This document shows positions 13,401 to 38,052 of a DNA stretch of 44,775 bases, piece by piece. How positions within the stretch are numbered: the first letter of the stretch is position 1; each line of letters opens with the position of its first letter. Below the pieces are notes generated by a model. It was not told the DNA's origin and made no database searches. It worked only from the letters and a program-made list of their open reading frames with translations. The translations under genes and the position numbers were made by a program. Source of the stretch: a virus (lineage: Duplodnaviria; Heunggongvirae; Uroviricota; Caudoviricetes); the IMG/VR virus record IMGVR_UViG_3300034279_001376, positions 1 through 44,775 of that record; one strand, written 5' to 3'.

Positions 13401-16256
13401 GACTTCTTTATTCCGGTTTGTCTCTACATCAAAAGGATTTCTTAGATTCTTGATCCTGTTTTCTATATTTGTGATCTTAGCCTGTAATATAATTTGTTCT
13501 TCTTTTTCTATGTGGGGTTGTTTCAACTCGGCAACTAAAGATTTCTTTTCATCCCATAATCTTTCTTGTGCTTCTAATGCTCTGTCAAAATCTTCACCTA
13601 CCAGCCCGAATTTCTCGTATATTTCCCAAGTTTCTGTTTGGAACTCACGATTCCAGTTTGCTTTTTCCCAAGCCTTAAATTCCTTAAATGCTTCTTCGTA
13701 AACTCTATGAGCCTCTAGTGTTTCAGGAGTGTCCTCCCCCAAAGCCTTGGCCTCATAGAATTTCTTTCTTAACTGTTCTACCTCAAATTCTTTGGCTCTT
13801 CTTACCCATACGTTTTTATGTGGACTATGAAACATCAAGACATCTCTTTGGTCCATAGTGCCATCCTCTTTAATGTAATTTTCTTTGTCTATGCCTGTGA
13901 TTCTGGCTCCTACTGCTTCATTGTTTTCCTTAGTTCCTAAGTCATTGATTAACTCAACACTGTTGGCTAGGGAAACTTGGTTGGCTCCTATAATAGACCT
14001 TTCTACTACTGTGGAAACAGTCTGAATTAAATCATCCCCGATAAATAAAGAGTTTTCAAAGTAAGCACTCATTGCCACATCACCCTCTAAACCAAAGATA
14101 ATATTGGCTAATTTTTGAGGTGTTATAATTGCCTCATCATATTCTTCTTGAGTAATTTGTCCTGCCCTTAAAGCAGCCATTTTACCCACGTTGTAATCTT
14201 TGCCCACATCTGCCAATTGAGTGGTGAGTAAATCCACGGAAAGTTTGTTAATTCTTTCCTTGGAGATTCTAAGAGCAGTTCCTAAAGCAGCAAACCTTTC
14301 CTTGAGAACCTTGGTTTCTTGAAAGTCAGGATGAGAAAGGATAGGTTGAATGCTTTTTAACCAGTCTTCCCATTGAAGAATCATTCTCATTAAAACAGCA
14401 GCATCTTTGATTCCTTTATTCACGTCTTCTTTACTCCCTTCTAAGAGAGTTCTCAAATATTGAAAGTCGGCCTTGTTTGCATTCTCCCAAAAAAGAGTAG
14501 TAGAGCCTATTGAATTTACAAAGTTTAAAAGCCCTTGTGAAAACTCTACTGAATTTTCCTCAAGTTGGCGTATGATTTGTCTGGCTCTGTCAATAGGAAT
14601 GGTGAGGTTTCCAAATTTGTCTTTAAATAAGTCTGAGAGTCCATCTGCTCCTTCCTCATTTGCATCTTCGTTCTCTATTCGATTTACTATCCGAGAAATT
14701 AACTTTAAAGCAGGTTTAGCCAAGTTCACTATATTGTCAGGGGATAATTTTTTAAACTCTTCTAGGACAACCTCACTGAACTCTTTTGCTTCTGCCTCGA
14801 TTGCTCTTCTTTTCATCATCTCCCCGTAATCAGTGTACTTTACTTTTCCATTGTTATAGTAAACAAAGTCAGTGTCAGTGCCTGAGAAGTCCTTGGTGTT
14901 ATCCACTACTAAAGTATTTCCTTTCTTTTCTTGTTCTACTATGTCAAGTTTGGAAACAGGGTCCATTATGAAAGTACCATCTTCTGACTCTAGCATGTCT
15001 TCTTGACGAGTAGAAACTAACTTGACAGGTCCAAATTCATTTTCTAATCTGTCCCTTAATTCTTGGGTGATTTCACCACTCGTAAAGAATACAAATTTAC
15101 TGGATCCTACTATTTTGATTTTGTCCTTGAGTTCCCTGCCTAGTTTTGTTAAACGGGAATTAGTGTAATATTTTTTGAGGTCTTCACTGTTAGGTATTGA
15201 CCACATTCTACCCTTGATTGCTTTTCCGGGGATAATCTTTTCAGGGTCTCTTCGAGACGGTCTGTCTGGAATAGTATAGTTCTTTAAGTCAAGGAGTGAA
15301 TCATTCACATTGATTAAGACAGTATCGTAATCTCCCAAATCTTTGTTTAAAGTTTGGAATTGTCTGAAATCACTCAAGTCGTGAATTTGATACATAGTAT
15401 CCGATAACATAGCATTCGAGTAGAGTAACTCGGTTGTTTCAAGACTTAAAATTCTCATTGCTGCTTGATTAAAAGGATTCTTTAAACCCTTAACCCGTAG
15501 TATGATGTTTTGAATTATAGACCTCATTTTATTCCACAGATCAGGGGAACCAGAATAATACGCAGCCAAGGCTTTATTGTGGGTGTAAAGCGAGACTAAC
15601 TTGGCCATAGCCTCTCTTTTTAATTTTTCGTAGTTTCCCTTGTACTCAGGATGACTCCCATATTCCTTGAGGACATGTTGGTACATCTTGGTCATGGTAA
15701 TGCTGGATTCCATTTCTTTGTACAATTTGCTCCCTTTGTCTAACATTTCTACAAACACGTGAGCAACCTCTTCTGGAATTGCAGACTCATTGCCTCGTTT
15801 AATCTGAATCAGAAATTCATTCAACTTAGTGACAGCACCTACACTAATACCTTGGTTGTCATTCAATTCATCCAAAGTTTCTAACCTGAAATCTGGGTTC
15901 ACTCGCAGTAAAAAATTTCTTAACGTGTCAAGTATAGGTTCTGGTACAGTACTAAATGGTTCCGGGTTTAACTGGTAGTTCGAGGAATTAACTATTTTCT
16001 GCTCCTCCAAGTTATCAGGGTAATTTATTCCCTTGTGAGCATCTATTAATCTGAATGCACTTTCATTAAAAATAACTTTACCGTTTTCCTCAAACATAAG
16101 TTTAGGAGTGCCAAACCTGCTGGTAGCATTTTCGGAGTATAACCTGTTCACTTTTCTGAACTCATTTAGGTTCAGAATGTTGTTCCATTTATCTATAACA
16201 CCATTTGTAACTAGGTGTGCTTTAGTTTTTGCTCTTGTTGTTGTTACGTTACACAT
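10404..16256 (-). CDS. 1950-aa giant virion cargo/ejection protein with a degenerate zincin-like motif
   Basis: Long, helical and charged. Immediately follows the RNAP gene, as in the giant-gene cluster of crAss-like phages. 'IPEEVAH' at 15759-15773; hydrophobic 'LITMLSTYLLITFLFGY' near the C-terminus. Ends in three consecutive in-frame stops (TAA TAG TAA). Confidence 0.65.
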   Translation of the reverse strand: MCNVTTTRAKTKAHLVTNGVIDKWNNILNLNEFRKVNRLYSENATSRFGTPKLMFEENGKVIFNESAFRLIDAHKGINYPDNLEEQKIVNSSNYQLNPEPFSTVPEPILDTLRNFLLRVNPDFRLETLDELNDNQGISVGAVTKLNEFLIQIKRGNESAIPEEVAHVFVEMLDKGSKLYKEMESSITMTKMYQHVLKEYGSHPEYKGNYEKLKREAMAKLVSLYTHNKALAAYYSGSPDLWNKMRSIIQNIILRVKGLKNPFNQAAMRILSLETTELLYSNAMLSDTMYQIHDLSDFRQFQTLNKDLGDYDTVLINVNDSLLDLKNYTIPDRPSRRDPEKIIPGKAIKGRMWSIPNSEDLKKYYTNSRLTKLGRELKDKIKIVGSSKFVFFTSGEITQELRDRLENEFGPVKLVSTRQEDMLESEDGTFIMDPVSKLDIVEQEKKGNTLVVDNTKDFSGTDTDFVYYNNGKVKYTDYGEMMKRRAIEAEAKEFSEVVLEEFKKLSPDNIVNLAKPALKLISRIVNRIENEDANEEGADGLSDLFKDKFGNLTIPIDRARQIIRQLEENSVEFSQGLLNFVNSIGSTTLFWENANKADFQYLRTLLEGSKEDVNKGIKDAAVLMRMILQWEDWLKSIQPILSHPDFQETKVLKERFAALGTALRISKERINKLSVDLLTTQLADVGKDYNVGKMAALRAGQITQEEYDEAIITPQKLANIIFGLEGDVAMSAYFENSLFIGDDLIQTVSTVVERSIIGANQVSLANSVELINDLGTKENNEAVGARITGIDKENYIKEDGTMDQRDVLMFHSPHKNVWVRRAKEFEVEQLRKKFYEAKALGEDTPETLEAHRVYEEAFKEFKAWEKANWNREFQTETWEIYEKFGLVGEDFDRALEAQERLWDEKKSLVAELKQPHIEKEEQIILQAKITNIENRIKNLRNPFDVETNRNKEVNNDPEKDKRISDVLKRKHIIDRQLYDYKIDNKRFLKDLNERISQLADLDLQRDLSDLLDTNNPLWLNELKALAEARAPQTFIDWVELNTKFTYSESFYENRKKIIDDLKGAISQLGALLSKDQQEALEESNKALQSSWEELFNISSSLRDENGVFDASDSSLEHQELIKQAETEINILKALIKEQSSSLDSDVAKALRKKIIKVIEELSDLQSKQPTDYYNEVMFAKLEKIYPKELGRVFENEDFLALVRSSKFQTFLQTAPQDFLDWFNTNHFMKEYEEDGEVVVDYKPTYIWMKITPNNTEDILLIPNQKYSNRKIKDNVVVEFEDRVEFFQIKTEKNENTWDDVTEQWLPKSDEFRNEAYYSMNASDRAYHKKLVDFYRKVQKDAPKNTRMGYKAPFMHKTFTDGGGLASLWKSFTENINPVESGEENATPLRSKFADRLRAFVGLETKAQREVQTDLLGNKISSIHTPYKNYIEEKDVTRDVLTSVLNYSEGLERTKALIGNVPELNLLEQLLEQFNPFEKDLLGTGGRRVKTGKNRRLEVIQNIKKTKLYGDVKDYELGRGLDKATLMMRNWTSLFSQSIINPANSLKNYIQGMLTNIISVDADWADSRSIMKAMKSAKTSFIPFISELGNQKKSLDFQIVTLFNLSMSQNVTDLFSKTALKRQLDPFGKFKYISSEAAEFSVTTTLLYAHLFHKKVMIDGVEKPLYDVFYLDNGVLKIKEAKDGDKVVNQDYINELVLKTKVITEHVQGKQFNSTVAQRFTIWRNFEFFKKYFIPKLRERFVGKRKNLVMGNDIEGFYVTTFKRFLLEVLSYLDNGRFSGVAMSPLEIVARRKMTRELITMLSTYLLITFLFGYDDDDEEKNDKLKENSWATNFSLMTMLAAKKETDAASIIPLLNTQESMIPPLFNETYNFVKEPFMGFGLFEQGKKLIDASFTHVFNNEDAYYDADMKAYFIEEGDSKLGHRLKKLMHYDAILYLGSPEYKIQSTQSFAK

Positions 16257-16258
16257 AT

Positions 16259-19200
16259 TTAAAATGGTATGTTATTGTTAGGTTTGCCTTTAATTGCGCA
16301 CAAATCTACGACTTTATCATCTAATAAAGGAGAACTAATTTCAGACCTTAAAGCAGTCTCTATTCTTTTCTGTTCTGAAATCCAATATGCACTTGGAGAC
16401 TTATTCTCAGAAATAAAATCTATTACGTCATCTACTGTAAATCCTAACTTATAAGTGTCATTCAAGTCCTCAAGATAGAGATCAAGTGATTGACCTTTGT
16501 TGGATACGTAATTAATTCCTCTTTCTTGTAACCAGTTTTTATCAAAGTTACGTTTAAAAGTTTCTGCTGTTAACCTTACTCCTTTTTTCCCTCCAAAATC
16601 AGAAGCAAGAATATCAGTTTTACTTTGAGGAAACCTTTGTCTTTCTTCTATTTGTTCAAATGAAATTTTAGATATTTCTTTTTCTGTTAAAGGGGAATTT
16701 TCAAAAGAAGGTTTAATCCCCAAGGTTTGCTTTACTGCATTCCAAGAAAACACATTTTGATTTGTCACAGATACTGGTTCAACACTAGGAGTGTTTACAG
16801 AATTATTAAATATTTCTTTGATTGCTTGCTTACCTGCTTCATTAATTTCACGAGTACCAATACCTGCAAATTTTTTAGTCAATACTGGTGTAGGTACTGA
16901 AACAAATTTTTCAGTGCTGTAATCCCACTTGTACCAACCAACACTTGCTTTGTTGTCAGAATTAGTACCTTGGTGAAACACATAAACAGGTTTTCCTAAA
17001 TTAATAGCCATTTGTACTGCATAACCTGTACCACCATCAACTATTTCTTTACTAGATTTGCTGGTGTATCTGGTACCTTTGGATGCTTTACCTTTTTCTC
17101 CAACTCCAATTATATCACTTATTGCAAAAATAGCATCTGCTGCTTTTGCCTGTAAATAATCCCTTCTTACTAAACCACCCACATAATCTTCTCTTTGAGG
17201 ACTAACCCAGTTGTAAGACAGAGTTTTTCTACCCAAATCATCTTTTGCTTTCAAATAAGCAGACTCCACTTCTTCTTGTTGAGGCTTAGTTAATGAGTTT
17301 AAAGTTTCAACTTTATAATTGACTGTTTTACCTACTCCAAATTCTTTACTTTGTGCAGCCCACAGTTTATCAGCACCGATTGCATCACCTGAGTATAAAG
17401 TATGCTCGGTGTAATTAGTTGATTTAGGTGTAATTTCAATGGTAACAGGTATGCTTTGGACTTGCTCGTTAAAATCAAACTGGTATTTCATAAATCTGAA
17501 ATTCCTTTTGTCAAACATTGCTTTAACCGCATTAACACCAGCAGGATTATACTCTTTGACAAAAGAACTACCAAATTCTAATACTCGGTTTTGTAAAAAC
17601 TTCTGCCAGAATTTATTGATGAACTCTTGTTTCTGTTTCTCACCTAGTCTAGTGAACTTTGTGTAAGCCTCGGAAGTGATTGCAGTAATCATACTTGGAG
17701 GAATACCCTTTAACATATACAACTTACTCTGGTTGAAACCACTCTGAAAGAAGGCAACCCTAACCAGATCTTTAGCAAATTGTGCTTGATCTGGTGTTCC
17801 GTTTAGTAAATTTTGGATGTCTTGAGCGAGTGTGTCATAAGTATCCGTGTCATTGTCTAAGCCTACAAAATACATAGGATTTACAAAATCTTCGTACCTG
17901 TCTGCAATTAACTTAGAACCTAATACTGTGTCTTTTAATTCCGGGTACTTTTCTTTTAAATTCGCCCAAGTATCCATTAGTGGGCCAGTCATTAGATTCT
18001 GAACCTCTACCAGATCTTCATTTCCTAAATTCTGAATAATGGCCATTAAGAAGTCATTGTCAATAACCCTTACGAATTTCTCTTTATCACTTTTAACTCC
18101 TAGCCCTTTTTGGGTCACAAAATCTACAAATACTTTATCGTTTTTGATTCCAAAAGCAGCCTCGGATATTAACTTAAACTCTTCGTGGACATTCAAGTGG
18201 GAAATTACAGAATCATTGTGAATTTTATCAGAGGATTCAAGGCTGAAAAGTCCATCAACTTCTACATCAGGATTTTCTTCTTGGATGTTACTCATTTTGT
18301 AAGAAGGGTTAGTACTGGTGTCAAAGTTATTTTTGCTTTGGACTTTACGCAGTGCATCTGCTTGTGCTAAGCCCACAAGATAATACACTAGGACTTCTTT
18401 GTTGAAAGTTGACCTAGAACCAAGAGGTTGTATTTCCCTCAAGTTCAAAGGATTAGAGTAACCTATGCGTTTAATGTCTTCCCATATTTTTTTGTTGGAC
18501 TTGGGAAATGTTCCGTCTTGAGTGACTATTACAGGGTCTATTTCTAACAGTTCAAGCATGGCTTCTTTTTTAGCCTCTCCTCTTGAATAACCCTTTCCTA
18601 CCAATACGTTTATTTTTTGGTGGTACGTGTAAATCTCAGGCTGGTGAAGAAGTTTAAGAACTTTTGGTAAAGGAGTTCCAAGCATAGTCTGAAACATCAC
18701 AAATCCTGTATTGTCTGAGATAAGATTCGTGTAACCTGCAATGTCATTAGAAGCAGCATCCACTGTGATATTGATGAACTGGTTAATGATCTCTAACTTA
18801 TCTAACGTAGTTCTCTCTTTGTCAATGATAAAAGGGTCTGAAATTTTTACCAATTTTTGTTCTTCCTCGGTCAACAAAGGTACATTAAACTCAAAGCCTA
18901 CTTCATTGATAGTCAAAAAACTATTGAGTTTAAAATCTACTGTTTGCATTAACGTGTAGAAAGTGTTTGCAACAGCACCTATCCCTAAGAGGTCTTTAAT
19001 CTTAACTGCTTTCCATTTCTTTAAGTGAGTAGTGTAACTGAACACTCTACTCAATTGAGGCTCTGCATTTACCTTACCTACACCCGGATACAATTTAGCA
19101 GTCACTTCTTCTACTGCACCCTTGATAAGAGCATCAGTATTGGGGGTGATTAACCTGTGGAAATTGACAGGATTCAAAACTATGTCTTTGCTTGCTTCTA

Positions 19201-22200
19201 AGACTTTGTTGTGTTTTACTTGTTTGAACACGCTATCTTTGGCAGCCTGAATAAATGCTTCTTTTGTTATAACCTCACCTTTTTTAACAAGACGAGATTT
19301 TACTATATCAATTATATCTTCATTTACATTAAATCCAGACTTGTCAGAAATAATCCCTAAAATCTGAGAAAGAGGGGAAGACTTAATAATGTCTATTTGA
19401 CTCATTAACTCCTCGTACAATTGCTCATATTTTTCTGACAAATAGTTTTCATTGGGAGCAGTTATGTACCTACCGTTCTTACCAATAGAAGGTAAAATTA
19501 CACTTTCCTTATCATAGTCATAATCCGTACCTGATTTGGTAACAATTTGTGGGGGTGGTACAATAGTATTACCCATCCATTGAGGCAAGAATCTCTTGAC
19601 CATAAATATGTCCATAGAGTTCAGACCTTGTGTTGGAATACGATAAGCAGAAAGAGTTAATTCTTTTTTATATTTTTTGCGGAAAGCCTTGTCTTTTAAT
19701 AACTCGTTGAGTTCTTCGAGAGTGTTATTAGTTACTTCTGGGAGGTTCAAAAGATTCAAAAAATCCCCTGAAAGTGTGACCATACAATCAGCAGGTAACA
19801 CTTCTCCATTTTCATAACGATAAAACTCTAATTCTTCTGCACCAAATAATGCAGGAGCCACTTGAACCAATTGCCCACCCGGAAACTTGGCTTTCACAAT
19901 ACGATTTTTTAAAAGCGAATATATTAAGGTTTCAACACTTTGAGGACTTAAAGATTCTTCGAGGTTTTGACCTGAGTAATTGTCGAATAATTCAGTATAA
20001 GCCAAAGGTAAATCTCTGCTTTCTAACTCTTCCTTGATTAATTCTACAACTTTATAAACATCTACTTGTCCATCCTCTGCTCCTAAGTCTTTCATCAAAG
20101 TTTCCCTAGCATTTTCTGCAAGTTCTCTTTGGCCCTCTATCCAGTTACCTACCGCAGACTTGAGTGAGTTCATAAACTCCCCATTTAAGGAGATGTTAGA
20201 AAGAACCAACTTTCTTTTCTGAGAACCCATCAAATTTTCTGTCTTGATGTAATCAGGAGTTTTTACTTGCTCCTTTAAATAAACAGTGTCTATTTCGTGC
20301 ACAGATTCGTACTCTTTAACCACTTGCCAATCATCAGCATTAAATGTTCCTAACTTGGTTCCTGATTGAAATTTACCGTATGCTATGCCTTGTTTTGACA
20401 TTTGCTCAAAATGCTGTTCTGCTAATGTTCCTTTGATAAAGTCAGGAAACAAAGGAGTAAGAGCAAACTTGTCCAATAACTCTACTGCTACATTAGTTTT
20501 ACTAGCAGGTCTTGCAGAACCTCTGTATTGGAATTTCAACTTAGGAAACTGAAAGTACCAACCTTTTTCTTTGATGTTTAATTCGACTTGCTCAAACAGC
20601 ACTTGTTCTTGTTCTGAGATTATGAATCCTTTTTCTTTCTTAAATTTAGTTGCTAAGTATTGAAAACCTTCTTCTTTTTCAGGTCCCCAAGAATTTACTG
20701 CTTGACACATAATTCTATAAGCATCAGGATGTACCCAACCTTCACCATCTCCTATGTCAGAACTTGGACCATCTTCTTTAGTAGAGTTTCCATAAGGAGC
20801 CACAACTTCGGATGCTCTTTCTTCCAAGTTCTCAGGAGTTCTACCAAAAAACTCATCAGTTAATTTTAATGAGTTTTTAGCACCTTCTGTTAAGTTCTTA
20901 ATCTGTTCTGGAGAAGCCTTCATTTTAGCCTCTTTCAGAACTATGGATTTCATTTTAGTGGTGTCATTGTAATATTCTGGTCTAACCCCAAAAGCCTCTG
21001 AGAAAGTGCCTCCTTGGAGCCTTTCTTTAAATACGGTCTGTGCAGCCTGTGACATTACAAAAGGAGTACCGTTTGAAATGTTAGACTTTAACCTTTTGTA
21101 TATTTTGTCAAATTGCCCCAGTTCTCCATGAAACAAAATAATTTCTTCGATGGACATTACCAAGGAATTGAGAAGAAACTTATCTAATAATCCCTCTAAG
21201 TCCTCAGATGCTTCTTTCTGTAATTGAGAAAGGAATATAGGATGGCTTTCATCTACTGGTTGACCAGTCTCTTGAAGAATCCAATTTTTAAAGTCTTGTT
21301 TTTGAGCCTCAAAGTATGCCTCGAATTGCTCGTAAAATTCCTCTTTTCTGTCCTCTACAAATTGAGACACCTGCTCCAAAGACACGAGATCAAGATCAGT
21401 CAAAAAAGTGTCATCTAAAAAACTAAAAAATGTTAAACCTTGTTTTTTGTTTTCGTAGAATTTAGAGCCATATTTAGTAGGTTCATTTCTCTCTAGCCAA
21501 ACTCTTTCTAGTTCTCCTTTTAAGTATTGTTTGAATTGAACCTTGGCATTTTCTATTACATTTTTAGTGCCCAATGGAAGGTAAGTTCCTGCAACAGTGC
21601 TTGATTTACCATAAGCCACTCTAAACCCAAATGAAGAAGATGCTGTTTCTGCTCGAAGGTTCTCTTTGAAGCCACCCTCCAACACAGTGACCAATTCTTG
21701 TCTTACATACTCAATCGTAGGCAAGGAGATAGTATTGGTTCCATTCTCTAAGAATTGTGTTCCTGATACATTAAGAGGGGTTATTTTAGCACCACCTTTA
21801 ACCGCATTTAATGCCAATGAGTACTTGGCGATAGGATTTCTTAACCTTTCTACCCGTTCAAAATTACCTTCGTTTATAAACTTAATATTAAGCAGATAAG
21901 AAGAAAAATTATGCAGATTGCTCTGATTCTTCCCCTCTGGGTTTTTAGTCATATTACTCGTAGAATATGGCAAATACTTTGACATGGTGTTTTGGAAGTC
22001 AAGAACAACTCCTTTGTATCCTATAAACTTCTTACCGTCTATTTCTTGAGCATTTTCTAAAAAGTCAAATATATCAAAAGTAATTTCTAGTTCTGTGTTC
22101 TTTACGTATTCTAACTTATTTACCAATTTTGTCAAGAAATTTCCACTAACGGAGTAAACCTCGTTACGTACAGTAGGATATGATTCCATCTGAGAAGTGA

Positions 22201-25200
22201 TATTTACCCCGAAGTTTTTCATTACTTTTTTTATGCTGTCCTCAGTGTATCCACCTCTGATTGTTTTTAACTCCTTGTTTAAGTAATCTAAGAGAGAGTT
22301 AGGTGTCAACTCATCAAACTCCTTGTCTGCAAAAGCCTTAAAACTGTCCAACATTGCAGACTTAATATTTTGTGCATCTAGTCTTCCTGATTCAAAAATA
22401 TCATAAGAAAATTTCCGGTCAGGTCTTTCTTTAGAGTATTGGGTATTAAGACCTGCAAATTCTTGCTCAAACATTTCCTCTTCATACACTGGCTCTCCAT
22501 ACTCCTCTTGCTCATACCAATTATCTTTAGAGTTTATTTCTTTCTGCTTGACTATAATAGTAGGCACTAAAACCTTTGAAAAAGATTGCTCTATTCCTTT
22601 CAAAATAAACATTTCTTCATAAGCACTATCTCCTGTGCCAGTTAATTGCTCTAGGCGTTCTAGCACTATGTTCATTTCAGGCAATTTTTTGTAGCCTTTT
22701 AATTTTTCCTTAATTTCCTCGATGTCAAGTGAGCCATGCACTGCATCAGCAATACTGTTCCATAAGGTAGTATAATCACTAGGAATTAAATTACCGTTTT
22801 TATCCTTGGCATAAACATACTGTCCATTATCCATTACTGGTTCCCCATCTTCTAGGAGGATCTTAGGAATCATTTTAATAAACACTCTCGCATATTTAGT
22901 ACCAGCATCTACTGAACTGATAGAACTTTCTGTTCTGTCTTGAAATTTAGTCTCGGTATCAGACTGAGTTTTGTCTTTTACTTCAAGTTCCGCTAGTTTT
23001 GAGGATTTTAACCAAGTCTCAAAAGTAGCATCAAAGTCTTTCAAGAAAGGTTTAAGATACTCAGCCCTTAAAGGGTCTTTAGATTCTAATTCTAACTCTT
23101 CTAATAGCACTTCTTTAACCAATTCAGCATCCAAATCTCCATTTAAAAGATCAGCAAACTGCCCTATATCCCATGCCAGATTCGAGAGTAACATGTCTAA
23201 ATGAGCAACAGGTATTTCTGGTACACGGTCAAATGAACCTAGTATTTTTTTCTTGCTTACTAAAGTTCTTTTCTTAGGTCCTATCTCCGAGGGTACATTT
23301 TCTACAAATTGTTGAACTTTTGAAGTCCTGTTAAATATCAATTTGAGAAGATCAAAAGTAACTTGCTCTTGTATGCTTGGATTCTCGTAGAATAAACTGG
23401 CTATTTTAGACATTAACTCATTTAAAAGACCAAGAATGTATTCGTAAATTCCTTGGTTGCTTGTTGTCTCATAAGTAAAACCTGATTCTTTAATCAAGTC
23501 CTGCATAAAAGGCATAGTCAAGGAAGTTACAAACTCTTCCATGCTTTCTGTATAATACTGCATTCTGTCAATACTATACATACTTCTAAGATGGTTTCTT
23601 AGTCTGTCTAATTCTTGGTATTCTACTGTGTCTTTTTGGGAGCCTAAATTATCTGCTGTGTAAGCATGGATCAATTCTTCAAGTACGTATCCTTTTACAT
23701 TTCCCTTGGTAATTTGGGAAGCCCTTAAATAAATTTGACCATTAGTATAGGCTGCTATTAAGTCAGTGCCTAATTTGTCCATTTCAGCATCAGACAGGAA
23801 ATTGACTGACTTACCCTCTTTCAAAAGAGAATAAACCAATTCACCTTGCTCGCTTAGTGGTTCCCCTTTGATTGAATTGATAGGAACTGTTCCTACTGGG
23901 AAATCTTGAACCTCTTGAATATCAGAAACTTCAAGTCTGTCCCTATCGTAAGTAAATACATAGTTTTCTGCATAACCCAACCTACCGTTTACTTGGGTTA
24001 ATCTAGTGCTTAGTTTTCCTAGTAAATATTCTTCCTGTTCAGGTTTGGGCCATAAGGTGTCTTTAATACCATTGTCATAAGTTAACCTTTTGGTGTAACT
24101 ACCTACACTGTTTCCCTCGAATGTTTTGGGTACACGTATTCTCTGACCTAATAGAGCCAATCTAACCTTGGGTGTTATTTCACGCACTGGTTTTTGATTG
24201 GTTTCAGTCACATAACTTCCCTCACTTTTATACCTTTCGACTGAATATTCTATCTTGAAATTGTCACCTTCCTTGTAAGGGTAAAAAGCAATTCCTCTGC
24301 TTGTAACTTTAATTCCTTTGGTTAAAGCCTCTTCGTATGTTTGAACATCTTTGGGAGTGGTGAATTCACCTAGCATTAATATTTCGTTCAGGTAATTAAT
24401 AACTTTAGAAACTTCTGCAAAAGATTTGTAATCGCCTGCCATTAACCCTAAAACCTCTTTGTGCAATTCCTCTCCATCAGTAAGGGTTCCAATGGAAATT
24501 AATTCAACACCTTTAGGCCCTCTTAATCTAGGTACACCTCTGTCCCCAAATGGTGCTTCTTTATCAGGAATGAATATTTGGTCAAGAGTTACTCCTCTCT
24601 CTTTAAAACTTTTATACTCGCTGTCCACAGAGGTTGCTTCTACCCTGTAAGTTATTTCTTTTCCTTCACTCAACAACTGCTCAAATTCTGCACGTTTCTG
24701 AGAAGGCACGGATAGGTAAAGTTGAGAACCTCTTTTTCTTTCTTCTTCTATCTTGTAATCAAATATATACGCCTTTGACTTATCAGTAGTCAATTCACCA
24801 GCCTCAAATTGTTTAGGTTTAGAGGTTAAATATAATGGCTTCCATACACCGTTTTCTTTCCTTTCTAAAATAGCAACTACTCCTTTCCCAGAATTAACTT
24901 GAGCCCTTGTTAAAGGAACTCCATTGGCTAAAGGTTGCACAAAATCTTCACTGGCTCTCACCACTTTAACTCTAGTTTCTCCTTCTAGCCCTAAGATCAG
25001 GGCTTGTCTGGCCAAATCCAATTCATCAGTACTTGTGCTGAAAGTCTTGAAAATCAACCCTTTAGAGGCAGTTGTTTTGGTGATAGGTTCTGGAGCCACC
25101 ACCTCTTTCTCCTCGTAGTCCTTAAAGTTATCAAGTGTAACAGGCTCAAATCCCATCACTAGATTGGCACGTTTTTCTGCTATTGACTTAGATATTGAGT

Positions 25201-25756
25201 CATCTATTTCTACGCCAAAATCCTTGGCTATCTCTAAATAATAGTCAATAATCCCGTTGTCTCCTATTACTGAGTTTAAGAATTTGCTGCTTTGTTTGTC
25301 AGTTTTTTCAAGTATTTTAGGGACTTGGTTTTCTAGGACATTCTTTACATTAGAAGCATCAGGTAAAAAGTAGTTTCCTAAGAAAAGTGTGGCTAGAGTG
25401 TCTAAGTCAGAAGCCTTTCCTAATTCCGTATTAATGTCAGGGATAGTGATGCTGTACTTATTCACGGTAGCCCCCTTAACTAAACCTTTTAAGTTCTTAC
25501 CCAGTTCGAGGTTGGGCAAAGAAACTTGCACCTCAAGACCATTTGCTGTGTCTATAACTTGTAAAAACTTGAGTTTTTTAGCAACCCCTTTTTGTCCTTG
25601 GAAATCCAAAGAAACTGGAATTGCTTTTTTGTCCACCAATAAAGCCTTTTTGAGTGCTTTCTTGAAGTCCTCTATGTTGTCGAATTTATTCCCAAGTTGT
25701 TTTGAGAGTAAAGGGTCTTTTATAATTAATTTACAATTCAATAAACTTAGGTTCAT
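16259..25756 (-). CDS. Single-chain crAss-type virion RNA polymerase (~3165 aa) with N-terminal zincin-like and C-terminal SLOG-like accessory domains
   Basis: 'SAYRIPTQG' (RIPTQ at 19628-19642) is followed ~40 aa later by 'KSGTDYDYDK' (DYDYD at 19511-19525). This matches the RIP...DxDxD arrangement of double-psi-barrel RNAPs such as phi14:2 gp66 (DFDID). 'DGEGW' lies at ~20740. The start was moved from 25789 to the ATG at 25756, which forms an ATGA overlap with the upstream stop. Confidence 0.88.
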   Translation of the reverse strand: MNLSLLNCKLIIKDPLLSKQLGNKFDNIEDFKKALKKALLVDKKAIPVSLDFQGQKGVAKKLKFLQVIDTANGLEVQVSLPNLELGKNLKGLVKGATVNKYSITIPDINTELGKASDLDTLATLFLGNYFLPDASNVKNVLENQVPKILEKTDKQSSKFLNSVIGDNGIIDYYLEIAKDFGVEIDDSISKSIAEKRANLVMGFEPVTLDNFKDYEEKEVVAPEPITKTTASKGLIFKTFSTSTDELDLARQALILGLEGETRVKVVRASEDFVQPLANGVPLTRAQVNSGKGVVAILERKENGVWKPLYLTSKPKQFEAGELTTDKSKAYIFDYKIEEERKRGSQLYLSVPSQKRAEFEQLLSEGKEITYRVEATSVDSEYKSFKERGVTLDQIFIPDKEAPFGDRGVPRLRGPKGVELISIGTLTDGEELHKEVLGLMAGDYKSFAEVSKVINYLNEILMLGEFTTPKDVQTYEEALTKGIKVTSRGIAFYPYKEGDNFKIEYSVERYKSEGSYVTETNQKPVREITPKVRLALLGQRIRVPKTFEGNSVGSYTKRLTYDNGIKDTLWPKPEQEEYLLGKLSTRLTQVNGRLGYAENYVFTYDRDRLEVSDIQEVQDFPVGTVPINSIKGEPLSEQGELVYSLLKEGKSVNFLSDAEMDKLGTDLIAAYTNGQIYLRASQITKGNVKGYVLEELIHAYTADNLGSQKDTVEYQELDRLRNHLRSMYSIDRMQYYTESMEEFVTSLTMPFMQDLIKESGFTYETTSNQGIYEYILGLLNELMSKIASLFYENPSIQEQVTFDLLKLIFNRTSKVQQFVENVPSEIGPKKRTLVSKKKILGSFDRVPEIPVAHLDMLLSNLAWDIGQFADLLNGDLDAELVKEVLLEELELESKDPLRAEYLKPFLKDFDATFETWLKSSKLAELEVKDKTQSDTETKFQDRTESSISSVDAGTKYARVFIKMIPKILLEDGEPVMDNGQYVYAKDKNGNLIPSDYTTLWNSIADAVHGSLDIEEIKEKLKGYKKLPEMNIVLERLEQLTGTGDSAYEEMFILKGIEQSFSKVLVPTIIVKQKEINSKDNWYEQEEYGEPVYEEEMFEQEFAGLNTQYSKERPDRKFSYDIFESGRLDAQNIKSAMLDSFKAFADKEFDELTPNSLLDYLNKELKTIRGGYTEDSIKKVMKNFGVNITSQMESYPTVRNEVYSVSGNFLTKLVNKLEYVKNTELEITFDIFDFLENAQEIDGKKFIGYKGVVLDFQNTMSKYLPYSTSNMTKNPEGKNQSNLHNFSSYLLNIKFINEGNFERVERLRNPIAKYSLALNAVKGGAKITPLNVSGTQFLENGTNTISLPTIEYVRQELVTVLEGGFKENLRAETASSSFGFRVAYGKSSTVAGTYLPLGTKNVIENAKVQFKQYLKGELERVWLERNEPTKYGSKFYENKKQGLTFFSFLDDTFLTDLDLVSLEQVSQFVEDRKEEFYEQFEAYFEAQKQDFKNWILQETGQPVDESHPIFLSQLQKEASEDLEGLLDKFLLNSLVMSIEEIILFHGELGQFDKIYKRLKSNISNGTPFVMSQAAQTVFKERLQGGTFSEAFGVRPEYYNDTTKMKSIVLKEAKMKASPEQIKNLTEGAKNSLKLTDEFFGRTPENLEERASEVVAPYGNSTKEDGPSSDIGDGEGWVHPDAYRIMCQAVNSWGPEKEEGFQYLATKFKKEKGFIISEQEQVLFEQVELNIKEKGWYFQFPKLKFQYRGSARPASKTNVAVELLDKFALTPLFPDFIKGTLAEQHFEQMSKQGIAYGKFQSGTKLGTFNADDWQVVKEYESVHEIDTVYLKEQVKTPDYIKTENLMGSQKRKLVLSNISLNGEFMNSLKSAVGNWIEGQRELAENARETLMKDLGAEDGQVDVYKVVELIKEELESRDLPLAYTELFDNYSGQNLEESLSPQSVETLIYSLLKNRIVKAKFPGGQLVQVAPALFGAEELEFYRYENGEVLPADCMVTLSGDFLNLLNLPEVTNNTLEELNELLKDKAFRKKYKKELTLSAYRIPTQGLNSMDIFMVKRFLPQWMGNTIVPPPQIVTKSGTDYDYDKESVILPSIGKNGRYITAPNENYLSEKYEQLYEELMSQIDIIKSSPLSQILGIISDKSGFNVNEDIIDIVKSRLVKKGEVITKEAFIQAAKDSVFKQVKHNKVLEASKDIVLNPVNFHRLITPNTDALIKGAVEEVTAKLYPGVGKVNAEPQLSRVFSYTTHLKKWKAVKIKDLLGIGAVANTFYTLMQTVDFKLNSFLTINEVGFEFNVPLLTEEEQKLVKISDPFIIDKERTTLDKLEIINQFINITVDAASNDIAGYTNLISDNTGFVMFQTMLGTPLPKVLKLLHQPEIYTYHQKINVLVGKGYSRGEAKKEAMLELLEIDPVIVTQDGTFPKSNKKIWEDIKRIGYSNPLNLREIQPLGSRSTFNKEVLVYYLVGLAQADALRKVQSKNNFDTSTNPSYKMSNIQEENPDVEVDGLFSLESSDKIHNDSVISHLNVHEEFKLISEAAFGIKNDKVFVDFVTQKGLGVKSDKEKFVRVIDNDFLMAIIQNLGNEDLVEVQNLMTGPLMDTWANLKEKYPELKDTVLGSKLIADRYEDFVNPMYFVGLDNDTDTYDTLAQDIQNLLNGTPDQAQFAKDLVRVAFFQSGFNQSKLYMLKGIPPSMITAITSEAYTKFTRLGEKQKQEFINKFWQKFLQNRVLEFGSSFVKEYNPAGVNAVKAMFDKRNFRFMKYQFDFNEQVQSIPVTIEITPKSTNYTEHTLYSGDAIGADKLWAAQSKEFGVGKTVNYKVETLNSLTKPQQEEVESAYLKAKDDLGRKTLSYNWVSPQREDYVGGLVRRDYLQAKAADAIFAISDIIGVGEKGKASKGTRYTSKSSKEIVDGGTGYAVQMAINLGKPVYVFHQGTNSDNKASVGWYKWDYSTEKFVSVPTPVLTKKFAGIGTREINEAGKQAIKEIFNNSVNTPSVEPVSVTNQNVFSWNAVKQTLGIKPSFENSPLTEKEISKISFEQIEERQRFPQSKTDILASDFGGKKGVRLTAETFKRNFDKNWLQERGINYVSNKGQSLDLYLEDLNDTYKLGFTVDDVIDFISENKSPSAYWISEQKRIETALRSEISSPLLDDKVVDLCAIKGKPNNNIPF

Positions 25757-26190
25757 AAAATAAAATATTCTGTTTTGTTTGAAATACAAGGACTCGCTAA
25801 AGTAGGAAAGTTAAAACTGTACAAAGTTCCTTCCCAATTTATTTTTTCTTGTGAAACTATTTTGTGGTCTGTGAGGTGAGTTTTAAAGTGCTTACAACCT
25901 TTTGTAAAAAATGTAGATGTAGGTTCTAACCGGATTACTTCGTCAAATTCTACATAATTTTCCCACTGCTCTAGTAAGGATAACTCAGTGGCAAGTTCTG
26001 TTTTTTTAATCTTGGTTTTGTCCAACACTCCTGAATAATGAAATTTTGTAAAAACAGTTTGCTTTTGCCATACTATCTTATTTTCAGAAAGCGTTAGAAA
26101 TACAGTGTCTAAAGTTATACTAGACAGTAACTCCCATCCGTTGTCAGTAAATACAAAATGAAAATCTGGTATAGCCAGTAATTTATTCAT
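25753..26190 (-). CDS. 145-aa stand-alone Hint/intein-fold-like protein lacking splicing residues
   Basis: Coupled on both sides (TAATG at 26190, ATGA at 25753). 'FVFTDNGWELLSSITLDTVFLTLSENKIVWQK...YSG' and 'EKINWEGTLYSFNFP' resemble the N- and C-terminal blocks of Hint domains by eye. Confidence 0.5.
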   Translation of the reverse strand: MNKLLAIPDFHFVFTDNGWELLSSITLDTVFLTLSENKIVWQKQTVFTKFHYSGVLDKTKIKKTELATELSLLEQWENYVEFDEVIRLEPTSTFFTKGCKHFKTHLTDHKIVSQEKINWEGTLYSFNFPTLASPCISNKTEYFIL

Positions 26191-29100
26191 TAACAATCTA
26201 AATTTATTAGGTTATTTTGCACTGACTGCAAAAGTACTTGTTTTAATTCATTACTAGCATCTTTTGAAAAGAAATCTATTTTTTCTTCCAAAGTGGCCTC
26301 TTGCTTTCCATAAAGTTCTGCTATTTTAGAGTCAATTTCAGCATTGATTTTATCTATAAGTTCTTGTTTAGTTTTTGCACTACGTGCTCCTATTGTCATA
26401 AAACTATTATATTCGGAATCAAACTCTATATTTCTCAAGTATCTTGCTTTGTCATCTTCGAGTTCCTTTACTTTCCTTTGTATTTCTTTTTCTTGCTTTT
26501 CTTTTTTCCTAGCCTCTACTCCATCTTTTCCGTATCTAATTGTGTCTGCAAACTCTGCTATGTTAGAAACATCCTGATACCCTAATAAAAACTTGTGTGC
26601 CATTTCAAAAGTGTCAAAAGTGTATACGCTTGTATTAGTAAAAGTACCAATGTTTGCATAGTATGCTGGACCATTGTTTTGTATAAACCCATCATTAAAA
26701 CTTGTTCTTCCTGTTTCAAATAATTCCTGCCTTCTTGTATTAACAATACCTGCTTTTTCTTCCAAAGTAGATTCTTGTTCAGATTGTGTATTAAAAATAG
26801 TACTAATATCTATTCCAGTAAAATCTTTGGTGCTTAGAATTATATACTTTTCTAAATAGTCTTTTGTTTTGTAATTACTGTTACCAATTAGTTTTCTTTT
26901 AACACTGAGTACTTGTTCAACCTTTTCACTGGGTATAAATTTACTGTTTACTATTTCTAATATTCTTGAAATCCCTGCATCCACACTGTCTTTGTTTCCA
27001 AAGTCAATAGAATCCAAAACAGCAAAAGCATCTTTACTTATGGTAAGACCGTTAAAATCGGGCAAGTCTCTCAAATTAATTTCTTTATTTTTTTCATCTT
27101 TCTTTTCAAGTTCACTTCCCCAAGTAAGTACTATTTTCTTATCCAAGTAAATTTTACCATCTTTTACTTTTACAGTACCTTTAGTAATTTGTACTTGTCC
27201 TTTCTTGGGCCTTCCTGTTCCCCTTAATTCCGCTACATTTTGATGGCTGTCTATGAAACTAAATACTTCTGTTTCGGAATTGGGGTCAAAATAAAATTCA
27301 CCAGTAACTCCGTTGTGTTTTACTATAATATTACCGTTTGATAAACCATCAAATTGCCCGTTGAACAATTTTGCAGAGTCTGTTACAAAAGTCATAGGAA
27401 AATTTGTAACAGATTCCGCTCTGGTTGAATCCGGTAAACTTTCTGGTATTAACAAGTCTGTAACTGGTTCCTTCTCTATAACTGGTTCTCCATCCAATGA
27501 ATAATACTCGTGTCTTTCTGGTCTGTTTAACTTGATCTTATCTTGTAACAAATTCCCGTTTGTTAAAGTCCATATTGAAATACCATCAGCAGTAGCCAGA
27601 GTTCCTTTGATTATGTATCTTCCTCCGTCTTTTTTAGGCTCTTTGACCAGTTCTTTACCTTTGATTAATTCGTCAAGTTCCGCTTGGTTTTCTTTCCTCA
27701 TCTTCTCTTTTTGTGCTTTGTCTCTAACCATAGCATCATACGCATCCACCTCTATCTCTTCATCTGTCATTACTCTTACTCCCTCATTTACAGGTTCTTG
27801 TACAATTGGAGGTGTGGGTGCAGCAGGTGTTGGTGCATCAACTTTTGTAATTTCCCACTGATAAATTGAAGTTATTCCATTGTTAGTGTAATTATCTGGA
27901 CCAAACACAATAGTATTGGTCTCATTTCCAACTTCTCTGCCTCCTATAAAAGTCCCCCTAGTGTCTCCCAGAATGTATAGTTTACCCCCAAAATTTACTA
28001 TGTCCCCAGAATTAAGAGTTCTGAGAAAATAATACTGGTGAGGTCCAAAATCAATAGGTTCTGTGTCGGGGTTATTGGCTTGTTCTGCTTCATCCAAACC
28101 TGCGAGTGTTTCCACCATGTCAGTAGCAGATTGCTCTGGATTGTCAGCATTTTTTATCAACTCCTCTTGGGTTGCCTTAATCATTTCTTCTTGTAACCTA
28201 GCCTCTTCAAGTTGTCTCATTTTTTCTTCAAGTGACCTACCACTGGCAGTTCCTGCATACTCGTGTTCTAGGATTAACTGTTGAAGAGTTTCAGGGTTGT
28301 CTAGGTTTTGACTGATTCTTTCGTAAAGAACCTCTAAATCTAGTAACTGCCTACTTGTTGCTTTTTCTCTTAACGTATCTCCCAAGTCCGAGTAATAGTC
28401 TTTTTGGTTCTTTAATGCCTCAATTTGGCGATTCTTAAATCCTAAATAACTGCCTATGGTGTCCCTGTCACCCAAGGCCACAAGAGTAGCATAAGTAATG
28501 TCAGAATCTTGAGGATTGTTGTTTCCTAGTTTAATCTCTTCTTGGAGGGAAAATACATCACTTTGAGTATTTCTAAGTCTCCCTAGAAGATAACTCTGAT
28601 TTTCTTTCCAATCCTCAAACAATTTCTGTTGAACTGTTGAAACTTTGCTTTGGTCAACTTTGAATTTCTTAACTAAAAGATCCTTCACCTTACTGTTAGA
28701 GAAAGGGTTACTTTTAAAAGACTTTTCTACGGCTATTTTCTCGTCTTGAATTTGTTCTACTTCGGTAATTAATTTATTTATTACCTTAGATTTATCTAGG
28801 TCAGATTTTAAACCTTGAGTTGGGTCTTGATAAAATGCTTTGTTGTATTCTTCAAGAGAAAGGTCATTTAAGTCCTCAAGAGAACTCTTTAAGTCTTCTA
28901 CCTTACCAAATTTTGCAGCATTACTCACCGTTCTGTAAAGAGACTTGTAAGCATTTTGAAACTGGTCTGTTCTGCTTTGATTCGTAAGAGAGTCTTCAAG
29001 GCTTGACAATTCACCAACACTAGCCCTAAAAAGATCTAGGTCTTTGTTCATAGTGTCAGTGATTCCTTGCTGTCTGTCTGACCCAAATATGTTATTTTTA

Positions 29101-36777: not shown

Positions 36778-38052
36778 TTATCTTTTTATGTAATCTAATA
36801 TATTCGGGTTTCCGTACTTCTCTTTCTCAGATTGAGACACTTCAAAATTACCAGTTACTAACCTTTTTTTAGTGTCTGCTAATCCCCTGTAATGCAAAAA
36901 TCTTATCATTTCTTCTTCTGTAAATCCGTACTTATCTGCGTATGGTTTTAACTTTTTAATCTCTGGCTTGTAAATATCATTCACTACGTAGTTCATAAAA
37001 CTTTCTTGTGTTTTGGGGGAGTTTTTGAACTCGTTCATTATCTCTTCATTGGTTCCATCTATGCCCATGTACTCACCTATTTGTTTGGCCCAATACTTAG
37101 GATGGAATTGGTACTTACCTGTGGTTCCAGTTGTAGGGTTAATCACAGAATAATCACCTCCTGATTCGCTCTGCCCTATTCCTGCAATTACTCCGTCTGC
37201 ACTCATGCCCGAATCTGATGAGTAATTTTCATACTCGTCTTGAATTGGGGAATACTCATTTTCGTCTTCAAACACCCATTTTAACAGTTCTTGGTTTTGA
37301 TTTACTTTCATTTCTTGTTCTGAGTTTTCAGTACCAAGAAAAGCATTAGGATCAAAATCAGTGGAGTAAATGTCTGTTTGGTTTGTAATTTGAGAAGCAT
37401 CCCCACCTTCTTGAGCCATTCCAGAAGCCATAGTTTTAGCAAGTCCTACATATTGAGAGGCTGCTTGTCCTACTGATGATATTCCTTGTTGTTGGGTCTG
37501 CTTGTAACGGTTGATGTTTTGTTGATTCAACCCTTGATAGTATTCTTCCCACTGTCTTTGGATGTCTTGATTGGTGTCTTGAAGATTTAGATTAAACCCG
37601 CCTTCTTGAAAAGAATAAGGAGTATTTACATACTCGTTATTCCTTATATCCTGTTTTCTTTCCTCAAGATCAGCCTTATAAGCATTGTCTAATCTTTTTT
37701 GCTTTCTTTTTTCTTTGAAAGATTTACCTATTTGATAACCACCATAACCTGCTTGTGCAAACATCCCCAGAATAGGAATAGAACCAGCAGTTTGCCCTAT
37801 TATGTCAAGCGTAGATTGAGATTGAGATTGGGATTGGGATTGAGTAGGAGGTGTTTGAAAACTTTGTCCTTGAGGTATTTGAGAAAGCATATTTGGAATT
37901 CGAGCATTTTGTAATGCTTGAGCCTGCTGTGCCTGCTGGATTGCAGGAGCAGTCATGCTTTGTACTTGACCCAAAGGTAACTGTGGTAATTGCTGGATAA
38001 CTCCACCACTTTGATATTTTTTTAAAAACTTTTTACTTCTTTCTGTTAACAT
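36778..38052 (-). CDS. 424-aa probable cargo protein with a C-terminal lysozyme-like/lytic transglycosylase domain
   Basis: 'IAGIGQSESGGDYSVINPTTGTTGKYQFHPKYW' fits the E-S..GxYQF signature of lysozyme-like transglycosylases. The N-terminal half is Gln-rich and low-complexity, with three QxGG motifs. Confidence 0.7.
   Translation of the reverse strand: MLTERSKKFLKKYQSGGVIQQLPQLPLGQVQSMTAPAIQQAQQAQALQNARIPNMLSQIPQGQSFQTPPTQSQSQSQSQSTLDIIGQTAGSIPILGMFAQAGYGGYQIGKSFKEKRKQKRLDNAYKADLEERKQDIRNNEYVNTPYSFQEGGFNLNLQDTNQDIQRQWEEYYQGLNQQNINRYKQTQQQGISSVGQAASQYVGLAKTMASGMAQEGGDASQITNQTDIYSTDFDPNAFLGTENSEQEMKVNQNQELLKWVFEDENEYSPIQDEYENYSSDSGMSADGVIAGIGQSESGGDYSVINPTTGTTGKYQFHPKYWAKQIGEYMGIDGTNEEIMNEFKNSPKTQESFMNYVVNDIYKPEIKKLKPYADKYGFTEEEMIRFLHYRGLADTKKRLVTGNFEVSQSEKEKYGNPNILDYIKR
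37813..37842. repeat. Hexamer microsatellite (RGATTG)x5 encoding (QS)5
   Basis: agattg agattg agattg ggattg ggattg on the + strand. Confidence 0.9.

Follow-up and report, generated by a model that had tools for sequence, protein, structure and literature searches.

Cysteines at the facing ends of three giant injected proteins of a divergent crAss-like phage suggest a disulfide-joined chain

The stretch of DNA analysed here (the window; 44,775 nucleotides) comprises the first 44.8 kilobases (kb) of IMG/VR record IMGVR_UViG_3300034279_001376, a virus record of 131 kb that carries direct terminal repeats, and it contains the injected-protein block of a divergent crAss-like phage. Judging from the open reading frames (ORFs) of the window, the genes of this block all lie on the minus strand. 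In the order of transcription, they encode a protein of 424 amino acids (aa), a 139-aa ORF, proteins of 1062 and 862 aa, a giant protein, a 145-aa ORF and two further giants. We label the giants A (gp47-like), B (the gp50-like polymerase) and C (gp49-like). The subject of this report is the placement of cysteine (Cys) in these three proteins, which suggests that they are linked head to tail.

No family was found for A, B or C in PHROGs or Pfam. Their identities come from blastp comparisons with the giants of annotated crAss genomes. Protein A matches gp47 of crAss001 (E=8e-14) and gp058 of IAS virus (E=8e-16). Protein B matches crAss001 gp50 (E=4e-15), the giants of Suoliviridae and the polymerase cores of DAC17 (gene 58), Carjivirus (gp44) and crAss002; phi14:2 g066, which stands in the middle of the trio of that phage, matches the Carjivirus gp44 core as well. 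Protein C matches crAss001 gp49 (E=1.7e-5), IAS gp057 (E=1.3e-7) and cr116_1 gp048. Upstream of the giants, the 1062-aa protein matches cr116_1 gp045 (blastp, E=5e-8) and PF25725 crAss_CARG1 (25.6 bits, E=1.5e-5, with a curated cut-off of 27). In crAss001, gp45, gp46, gp47, gp49 and gp50 were identified as virion cargo by mass spectrometry, and this cargo is thought to unfold partly for passage through the tail (PMC10172136). The phi14:2 trio is annotated in its record as virion proteins from tandem mass spectrometry (MS/MS) proteomics. Mass spectrometry places the phi14:2 and crAss001 proteins in the virion; for those of the window, packaging and ejection are predicted.

Together, A, B and C contain only six Cys in 6582 residues, and the three upstream cargo proteins contain none in 2348; the 139-aa ORF that lies among the upstream genes has two. 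By translation of its ORF, B carries Cys8, Cys1684, Cys1991 and Cys3153, and A and C carry one Cys each (Table 1). The terminal positions, the number of Cys in each giant and the lack of Cys in the 862-, 1062- and 424-aa proteins had been read from the translations in an earlier note on this DNA, and all of them were confirmed. The same note held that each C-terminal Cys is matched by an N-terminal Cys in the next giant. That is correct for the facing ends, but A and B are not direct neighbours, as the 145-aa ORF, omitted there, lies between them. In C, the next in-frame Met after the start is residue 54. Elsewhere in the 131-kb genome, ORFs have a Cys content of roughly 1-4%, with a Cys at residues 2-8 in 9 of 138 and in the last 13 residues in 13 of 138. 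If each protein's own Cys are placed uniformly, the joint probability of the four terminal hits in the window is ~4.6e-9, a figure for which the terminal windows were picked after the data had been seen.

Table 1. Positions in the window of the giant proteins, their terminal cysteines and the neighbouring genes
Feature	Position	Strand	Remark
Protein A, 1467 aa	26190..30593	-	crAss001 gp47 homologue; sole Cys is the final residue
Cys1467 of A, codon TGT followed by TAA	26193..26195	-	ends the strand motif ..INLDC
Stand-alone 145-aa Hint (intein-like) fold protein	25753..26190	-	between A and B
Protein B, 3165 aa, virion RNA polymerase	16259..25756	-	crAss001 gp50 homologue
Cys8 of B	25733..25735	-	would be Cys3 with a start at the codon 6 TTG
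Cys3153 of B, followed by 12 residues	16298..16300	-	lineage tail motif C-x(2-13)-[IVL]PF
Protein C, 1950 aa	10404..16256	-	crAss001 gp49 homologue; sole Cys is residue 2
Cys2 codon of C (ATG TGT)	16251..16253	-	2 nucleotides after the B stop codon
Upstream cargo proteins, 862, 1062 (C1-like) and 424 aa	30574..38052	-	Cys-free; outside the proposed chain

The terminal Cys are largely retained in the window's own lineage, sampled here from sequence databases with clustering at 50% or 90% identity. A phmmer search with residues 268-1467 of A against 1.84 billion cluster representatives yielded 77 hits, 51 of them at E<=1e-10. Among these 51 homologues, 50 carry a Cys in their last four residues. 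Those of at least 900 aa have exactly one Cys in 43 of 46 cases and an N-terminal Cys in none, and only two internal Cys occur in 60,469 residues. For B, a Cys lies within the last 16 residues of 63 of 69 homologues and at residues 2-10 of 37. In the B tails of relatives, a shorter spacer separates this Cys from IPF; given the tail motif common to the lineage (Table 1), Cys3153 of the window is the same residue with a long spacer. Every one of the 23 C homologues has a Cys at residues 2-5 (M-x(0-3)-C), 19 have no other, and none has one at the C-terminus. In alignments of the last 160 residues of A (44 sequences) and the first 350 of B (31 sequences), Cys is the sole invariant column, and mean column identity is 13% and 18%, respectively; these alignments admitted Cys-bearing sequences only, which dropped a few A hits and several B hits. 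Three distant contigs have the order A, small ORF, B, with B starting M-x-C.

The same rule holds far outside this lineage. We took the polymerase blocks of 16 annotated crAss-like phages and read the termini of their cargo proteins, counting a terminal Cys as one at residues 2-8 or in the last 13. IAS virus and cr116_1, in which B is split, were for that reason kept out of the resulting tabulation; its 14 genomes span Steigviridae (including the marine phi14:2), Intestiviridae, Crevaviridae, Suoliviridae and the window lineage. A Cys is present at 35 of the 36 facing termini, compared with 2 of the 76 other cargo termini (Fisher p=1.8e-25, a value that ignores kinship). The test that the earlier note had proposed, terminal enrichment in homologous trios over a null, is therefore strongly positive. 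The sole miss is crAss002 gp33, in which an internal M-S-C at residues 33-35 matches the start of Carjivirus gp44; the annotated start (L009:6223-6330, NC_055828) is probably 32 codons too early. The cleanest case is phi14:2. Its trio amounts to 5398 residues with four Cys, each at a facing end: g067 (1797 aa) carries its Cys at the final position, the polymerase g066 (2180 aa) has two, at residue 3 and the penultimate position, and g065 (1421 aa) has one, at residue 3. In crAss001, gp47 has its sole Cys (Cys2339) 2 from the end, gp50 has Cys5 and one Cys (Cys2404) 8 from the end, and gp49 has Cys5 only. In total, the rule is positive across five deep crAss-like lineages and 143 database homologues of the window proteins.

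The residues that flank the terminal Cys differ between lineages. Among gut Steigviridae, A is encoded on the strand opposite to B and far from it, and its tail Cys is still present. The signal therefore resides in the protein and not in the DNA of the junction, and we ruled out a DNA-level signal at gene junctions on these grounds.

A further line of evidence comes from phages in which the giants are fused. Homology mapping indicates that the Suoliviridae giants of 4300-4900 aa are A+B fusions, which match the C-terminal region of gp47 at ~1600-1800 and the gp50 core at ~2600-3800, and that the Intestiviridae and Crevaviridae giants of 4000-4400 aa are B+C fusions. The N-terminal Cys is absent from the five A+B fusions compared (four of them in Suoliviridae), and it is likewise absent from 13 of 13 further database B proteins in which a leading A domain is detectable. 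The A+B fusions keep only the B-tail/C-head pair. Conversely, the B+C fusions have no C-terminal Cys, and only the A-tail/B-head pair is kept. The Cys pairs thus vary with gene fusion in the way that a head-to-tail link would predict. Fusion of the three proteins in some phages was already noted by Drobysheva et al., who did not mention cysteines.

Splits of B also occur, and three of them account for apparent exceptions to the rule. In cr116_1 (NC_055882), the polymerase is annotated as gp051 and gp049, with a 215-aa ORF, gp050, between them (L010:15187-16029); here B is split by an ORF-carrying group I intron, whose halves flank gp050 (Rfam RF00028, with E=6e-7 and 3e-6, both short of the gathering score). 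In IAS virus, the split of B falls on ambiguous bases. In database homologue P0116, the last domain of B is a separate 399-aa protein that ends Cys-Lys. One relative, L021, has a C-like protein of 2073 aa (L021:23304-29525) with Cys3, a Cys as its final residue and no others, which hints that the chain may extend to a fourth protein there.

The sequences that surround the A-B joint suggest its shape. The A tail carries the motif hydrophobic-x-hydrophobic-x-C, with a hydrophobic fraction of 0.93 at position -4 and 0.91 at -2, and the B head carries C-x-hydrophobic-x-hydrophobic-x-D-P. Both look like amphipathic strands. The earlier note had proposed modelling of terminal peptide pairs, and the A-B pair passed: a complex of the last 160 residues of A with the first 350 of B scored 0.77, compared with 0.01 for the best control. 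The score passes a mark that 58 of 80 solved complexes attain, compared with 2 of 110 mismatched pairs; these counts apply here only approximately, because the model was run with our own alignments. Model runs agree in at least 51% of contacts, and the predicted local distance difference test score (pLDDT) of the partners is at least 72. In the model, B residues 7-14 touch A residues 1460-1467, and the tightest contacts set B 9-14 antiparallel to A 1466-1462. Extending this antiparallel register places Cys8 of B beside Cys1467 of A. The model thus supports a contact between the A tail and the B head.

Taking these results together, we think it fairly probable that A, B and C are tied head to tail by disulfides into one chain. 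As is the case for other ejected phage proteins, the three have been purged of Cys, with one Cys retained at each end that faces the next protein. In the reading that we propose, two inter-protein disulfides would form in the finished particle, one between the A tail and the B head and one between the B tail and the C head. At each joint, two strands would pair antiparallel into a short ribbon sealed by the S-S bond. The ~6,600 residues would become one almost linear chain, which could thread through the tail from N- to C-terminus like a single polypeptide and be freed by reduction in the host cytoplasm. A linked chain of this kind had been proposed in the earlier note. The pairing of termini on which the proposal depends is observed in the Cys pattern, its conservation and its covariation with gene fusion, and it is backed for A and B by the modelled contact; the bond itself, the ordered threading and the reductive release are what we infer from it. 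Literature searches found no papers on terminal cysteines or disulfides in crAss cargo, in agreement with the note, which knew of no such description.

Several points weigh against this proposal. The disulfide in crAss cargo is a predicted bond, and cargo cysteines go unmentioned in the structural and polymerase papers searched. Further, the host cytoplasm and the anaerobic gut are both reducing, so the bonds would need to form after assembly or release. The sequences counted are related, and the counts overstate their independence. Five of the 69 B homologues do not fit the rule (P0082, P0083, P0086, P0116 and P0133). In two phages that split B, namely the relative L001 (2749+195 aa) and L021 (4670+399 aa), there is no Cys pair at the new joint. 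Cys without an obvious partner are found at two non-facing cargo termini, in Carjivirus gp47 and cr8_1 gene '20'. The tail Cys of B in the window, 12 residues from the end, is less terminal than its counterparts elsewhere. The complex model covers the A-B joint only and gives contacts, not an S-S distance. Finally, a conserved Hint-fold protein sits at the A-B joint in the window lineage.

Could the terminal Cys bind something other than the neighbouring giant? Each protein might be tied to the portal, the capsid interior, cargo protein 1 or its own second copy. The virion of crAss001 indeed has many inter-subunit disulfides in its tail and portal vertex (PMC10172136), and the two partnerless cargo proteins just named, which are C1-like, bear terminal Cys. 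In Carjivirus gp47 (L003:4694-7267), a homologue of cargo protein 1, the only Cys is penultimate; cr8_1 gene '20' (L015:3933-7481) encodes a protein of 1182 aa in the upstream cargo block that starts MTKKC. Such cargo termini may join something too. For the giants, however, fusion removes both Cys of a joint together, head and tail Cys are equal in number within each architecture, and the model sets the A tail on the B head with null controls. We therefore regard other partners as an unlikely explanation of the rule as a whole.

Another possibility is that the facing termini do dock, with their Cys sharing a metal ion, an option that the earlier note also gave, or needed for a non-covalent fit only. 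The pairing, the covariation with fusion and the modelled strand pairing would all be equally expected in that case. Each terminus, however, offers a single Cys with no conserved His, Asp or second Cys near it. Because Cys alone is invariant, the ligands are too few for a usual zinc site. Moreover, the same signature in the cyanopodophage A4, discussed below, is a disulfide by cryo-electron microscopy (cryo-EM). We consider metal sharing or a non-covalent fit improbable.

It is also conceivable that the Cys act only after injection, for instance by sensing the redox state and so activating the polymerase, or as targets of modification in the host. The activation of the phi14:2 polymerase is an open question, and thiols on free, flexible ends would be accessible. 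This idea leaves unexplained why A and C each have a single Cys that faces B and why Cys are lost on fusion; it is also compatible with a disulfide chain and does not exclude one. As the sole role of these residues, post-injection action strikes us as quite improbable. Lastly, chance, base composition or wrong start calls are hardly credible, as the conservation counts and the window probability already refute them: N-termini do hinge on gene calling, and the starts of crAss002 gp33 and of B in the window are uncertain, but C-termini are fixed by stop codons and bear the rule out (A, 50 of 51 hits; B, 63 of 69), the window alone gives ~5e-9, and other ORFs, with at least about ten-fold more Cys, have a terminal Cys in only 6-9% of cases.

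The 145-aa ORF between A and B overlaps both of its neighbours (TAATG with A, ATGA with B), and the synteny A, small ORF, B is kept in four relatives (L001, L018, L019 and L020). No Pfam family matched the ORF at E<=10. Its predicted structure, made from 5 sequences, has a mean pLDDT of 61. In an exhaustive VIA-align comparison, the best match is a class 3 split intein, 6zgq_B (Z 9.1; over 103 residues, root-mean-square deviation 3.2 A); the first 32 rows are Hint folds without exception, 29 of them at Z>5, and the next, unrelated row has a Z of 2.7. A Foldseek search of the Protein Data Bank was less clear and gave weak Hint rows only, the best at E=0.075. The gene is free-standing, its product has no conserved Cys as first residue and no terminal His-Asn, and the positions of its Cys are not conserved in the alignment. 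We considered whether the terminal Cys of A might be the first residue of a former intein. This idea was rejected: the Hint protein of L018 has its own Cys there, and A still ends in Cys. The Hint ORF may be an intein relic of a once-fused A-B gene or a helper in forming the joint.

Some further features of the window deserve mention. The TTG at codon 6 of B (25739-25756, minus strand) aligns with the start Met of most relatives, and a start at this codon would read M-N-C, as in those relatives; the upstream ATG overlaps the stop codon of the Hint ORF (ATGA). Of the two internal Cys of B, Cys1991 (19784-19786, minus strand) is kept in 41 of 68 homologues and, by this conservation, probably belongs to the enzyme core of the polymerase; Cys1684 is kept in 3 of 68. 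Residues ~2774-2983 of B (window ~16800-17440, minus strand) make up a domain (~210 aa) with 35-39% identity to segments of the virion polymerase of the N4-like Klebsiella phage Pylas and of Suoliviridae giants; the counterparts in those proteins are annotated as DprA-like or DUF1768. After a shared MKYQFDF point, 195 residues follow in the close relative L001 versus 410 in the window, so that L001 may lack this domain. The Cys-free 424-aa protein (36778-38052, minus strand) has a weak transglycosylase-like match, PF06737, at E=1.3e-4, which falls short of the cut-off; the protein may be a wall-lytic enzyme that is ejected. A thioredoxin (PF00085) was looked for in the phage genome without success. 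A megablast comparison of the region with a phage collection gave no match, and neither did the whole polymerase as a query for related loci.

If these proteins are covalently linked end to end in a conserved manner, their injection would be a matter of one thread, one order and release by reduction, and the link would explain the occurrence of fused proteins in some lineages and of separate ones elsewhere. We suggest, tentatively and as a possibility more than an expectation, that all crAss-like phages use one disulfide-stitched thread, in which the order A, B, C is the order of ejection, cytoplasmic reduction frees and activates the polymerase, and fusion and stitching are interchangeable; in the window lineage, a dead intein-fold protein may template the first joint. 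A 2026 paper on N4 still lists the crAss ejection proteins as unresolved. With the terminal-Cys rule, the question becomes open to tests on phages already in culture, and the rule can also be used to recognise and order ejected proteins in the genomes of uncultured ones. To this rule, the window adds a further, very divergent lineage.

Among the known systems closest to the window are the trios of phi14:2 (g067-g066-g065) and crAss001 (gp47-gp50-gp49) (Drobysheva 2020/2021; Bayfield 2023), which obey the same terminal-Cys rule; phi14:2 also shares the gene order. The window giants are nonetheless only 21-28% identical to these proteins over parts of their lengths, B is ~750-1000 residues longer, and the Hint-fold gene between A and B is a feature of the window that the other two phages do not share. 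In the N4-like phages (Schitoviridae), the ejected polymerase and its partners are also purged of Cys, which has been ascribed to passage through the oxidising periplasm (PMC11445570). The window giants resemble them in their strong depletion of Cys relative to the proteome. The Schitoviridae proteins, however, have essentially no Cys and no terminal pairs, whereas the window giants retain conserved terminal Cys. As the N4-like polymerase is made as a single polypeptide, these phages have no parts to join.

In AB toxins, the parts are joined outside the cell by an interchain disulfide, whose reduction in the target cytoplasm, after translocation across the membrane, frees the active part. Their resemblance to the proposed crAss chain is an analogy of principle only, without homology. 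A more direct parallel is found in the cyanopodophage A4, where cryo-EM revealed a disulfide between Cys1715 of gp27 and Cys5 of gp26, with the C-terminal segment of gp27 inserted into gp26 (PMC12002296). The A-4L record lists gp27 (1717 aa) and gp26 (1114 aa) as consecutive genes, and those Cys are their only ones: gp27 ends ..NPCQF, and gp26 starts MSKHC. As in the window, consecutive, co-directional ejection genes encode proteins with a lone Cys near the C-terminal end of the upstream product and near the N-terminal end of the downstream one. The two systems differ in other respects. The A4 proteins have no phmmer similarity to the crAss giants (no hit at E<=1), a single link is made where we propose a chain of two, and no RNA polymerase is involved. 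Further, the tail in A4 is a helix in a cleft, whereas the crAss model has a two-strand ribbon, and the authors of the A4 structure offer no general rule. The comparison is one of mechanism, not of family membership.

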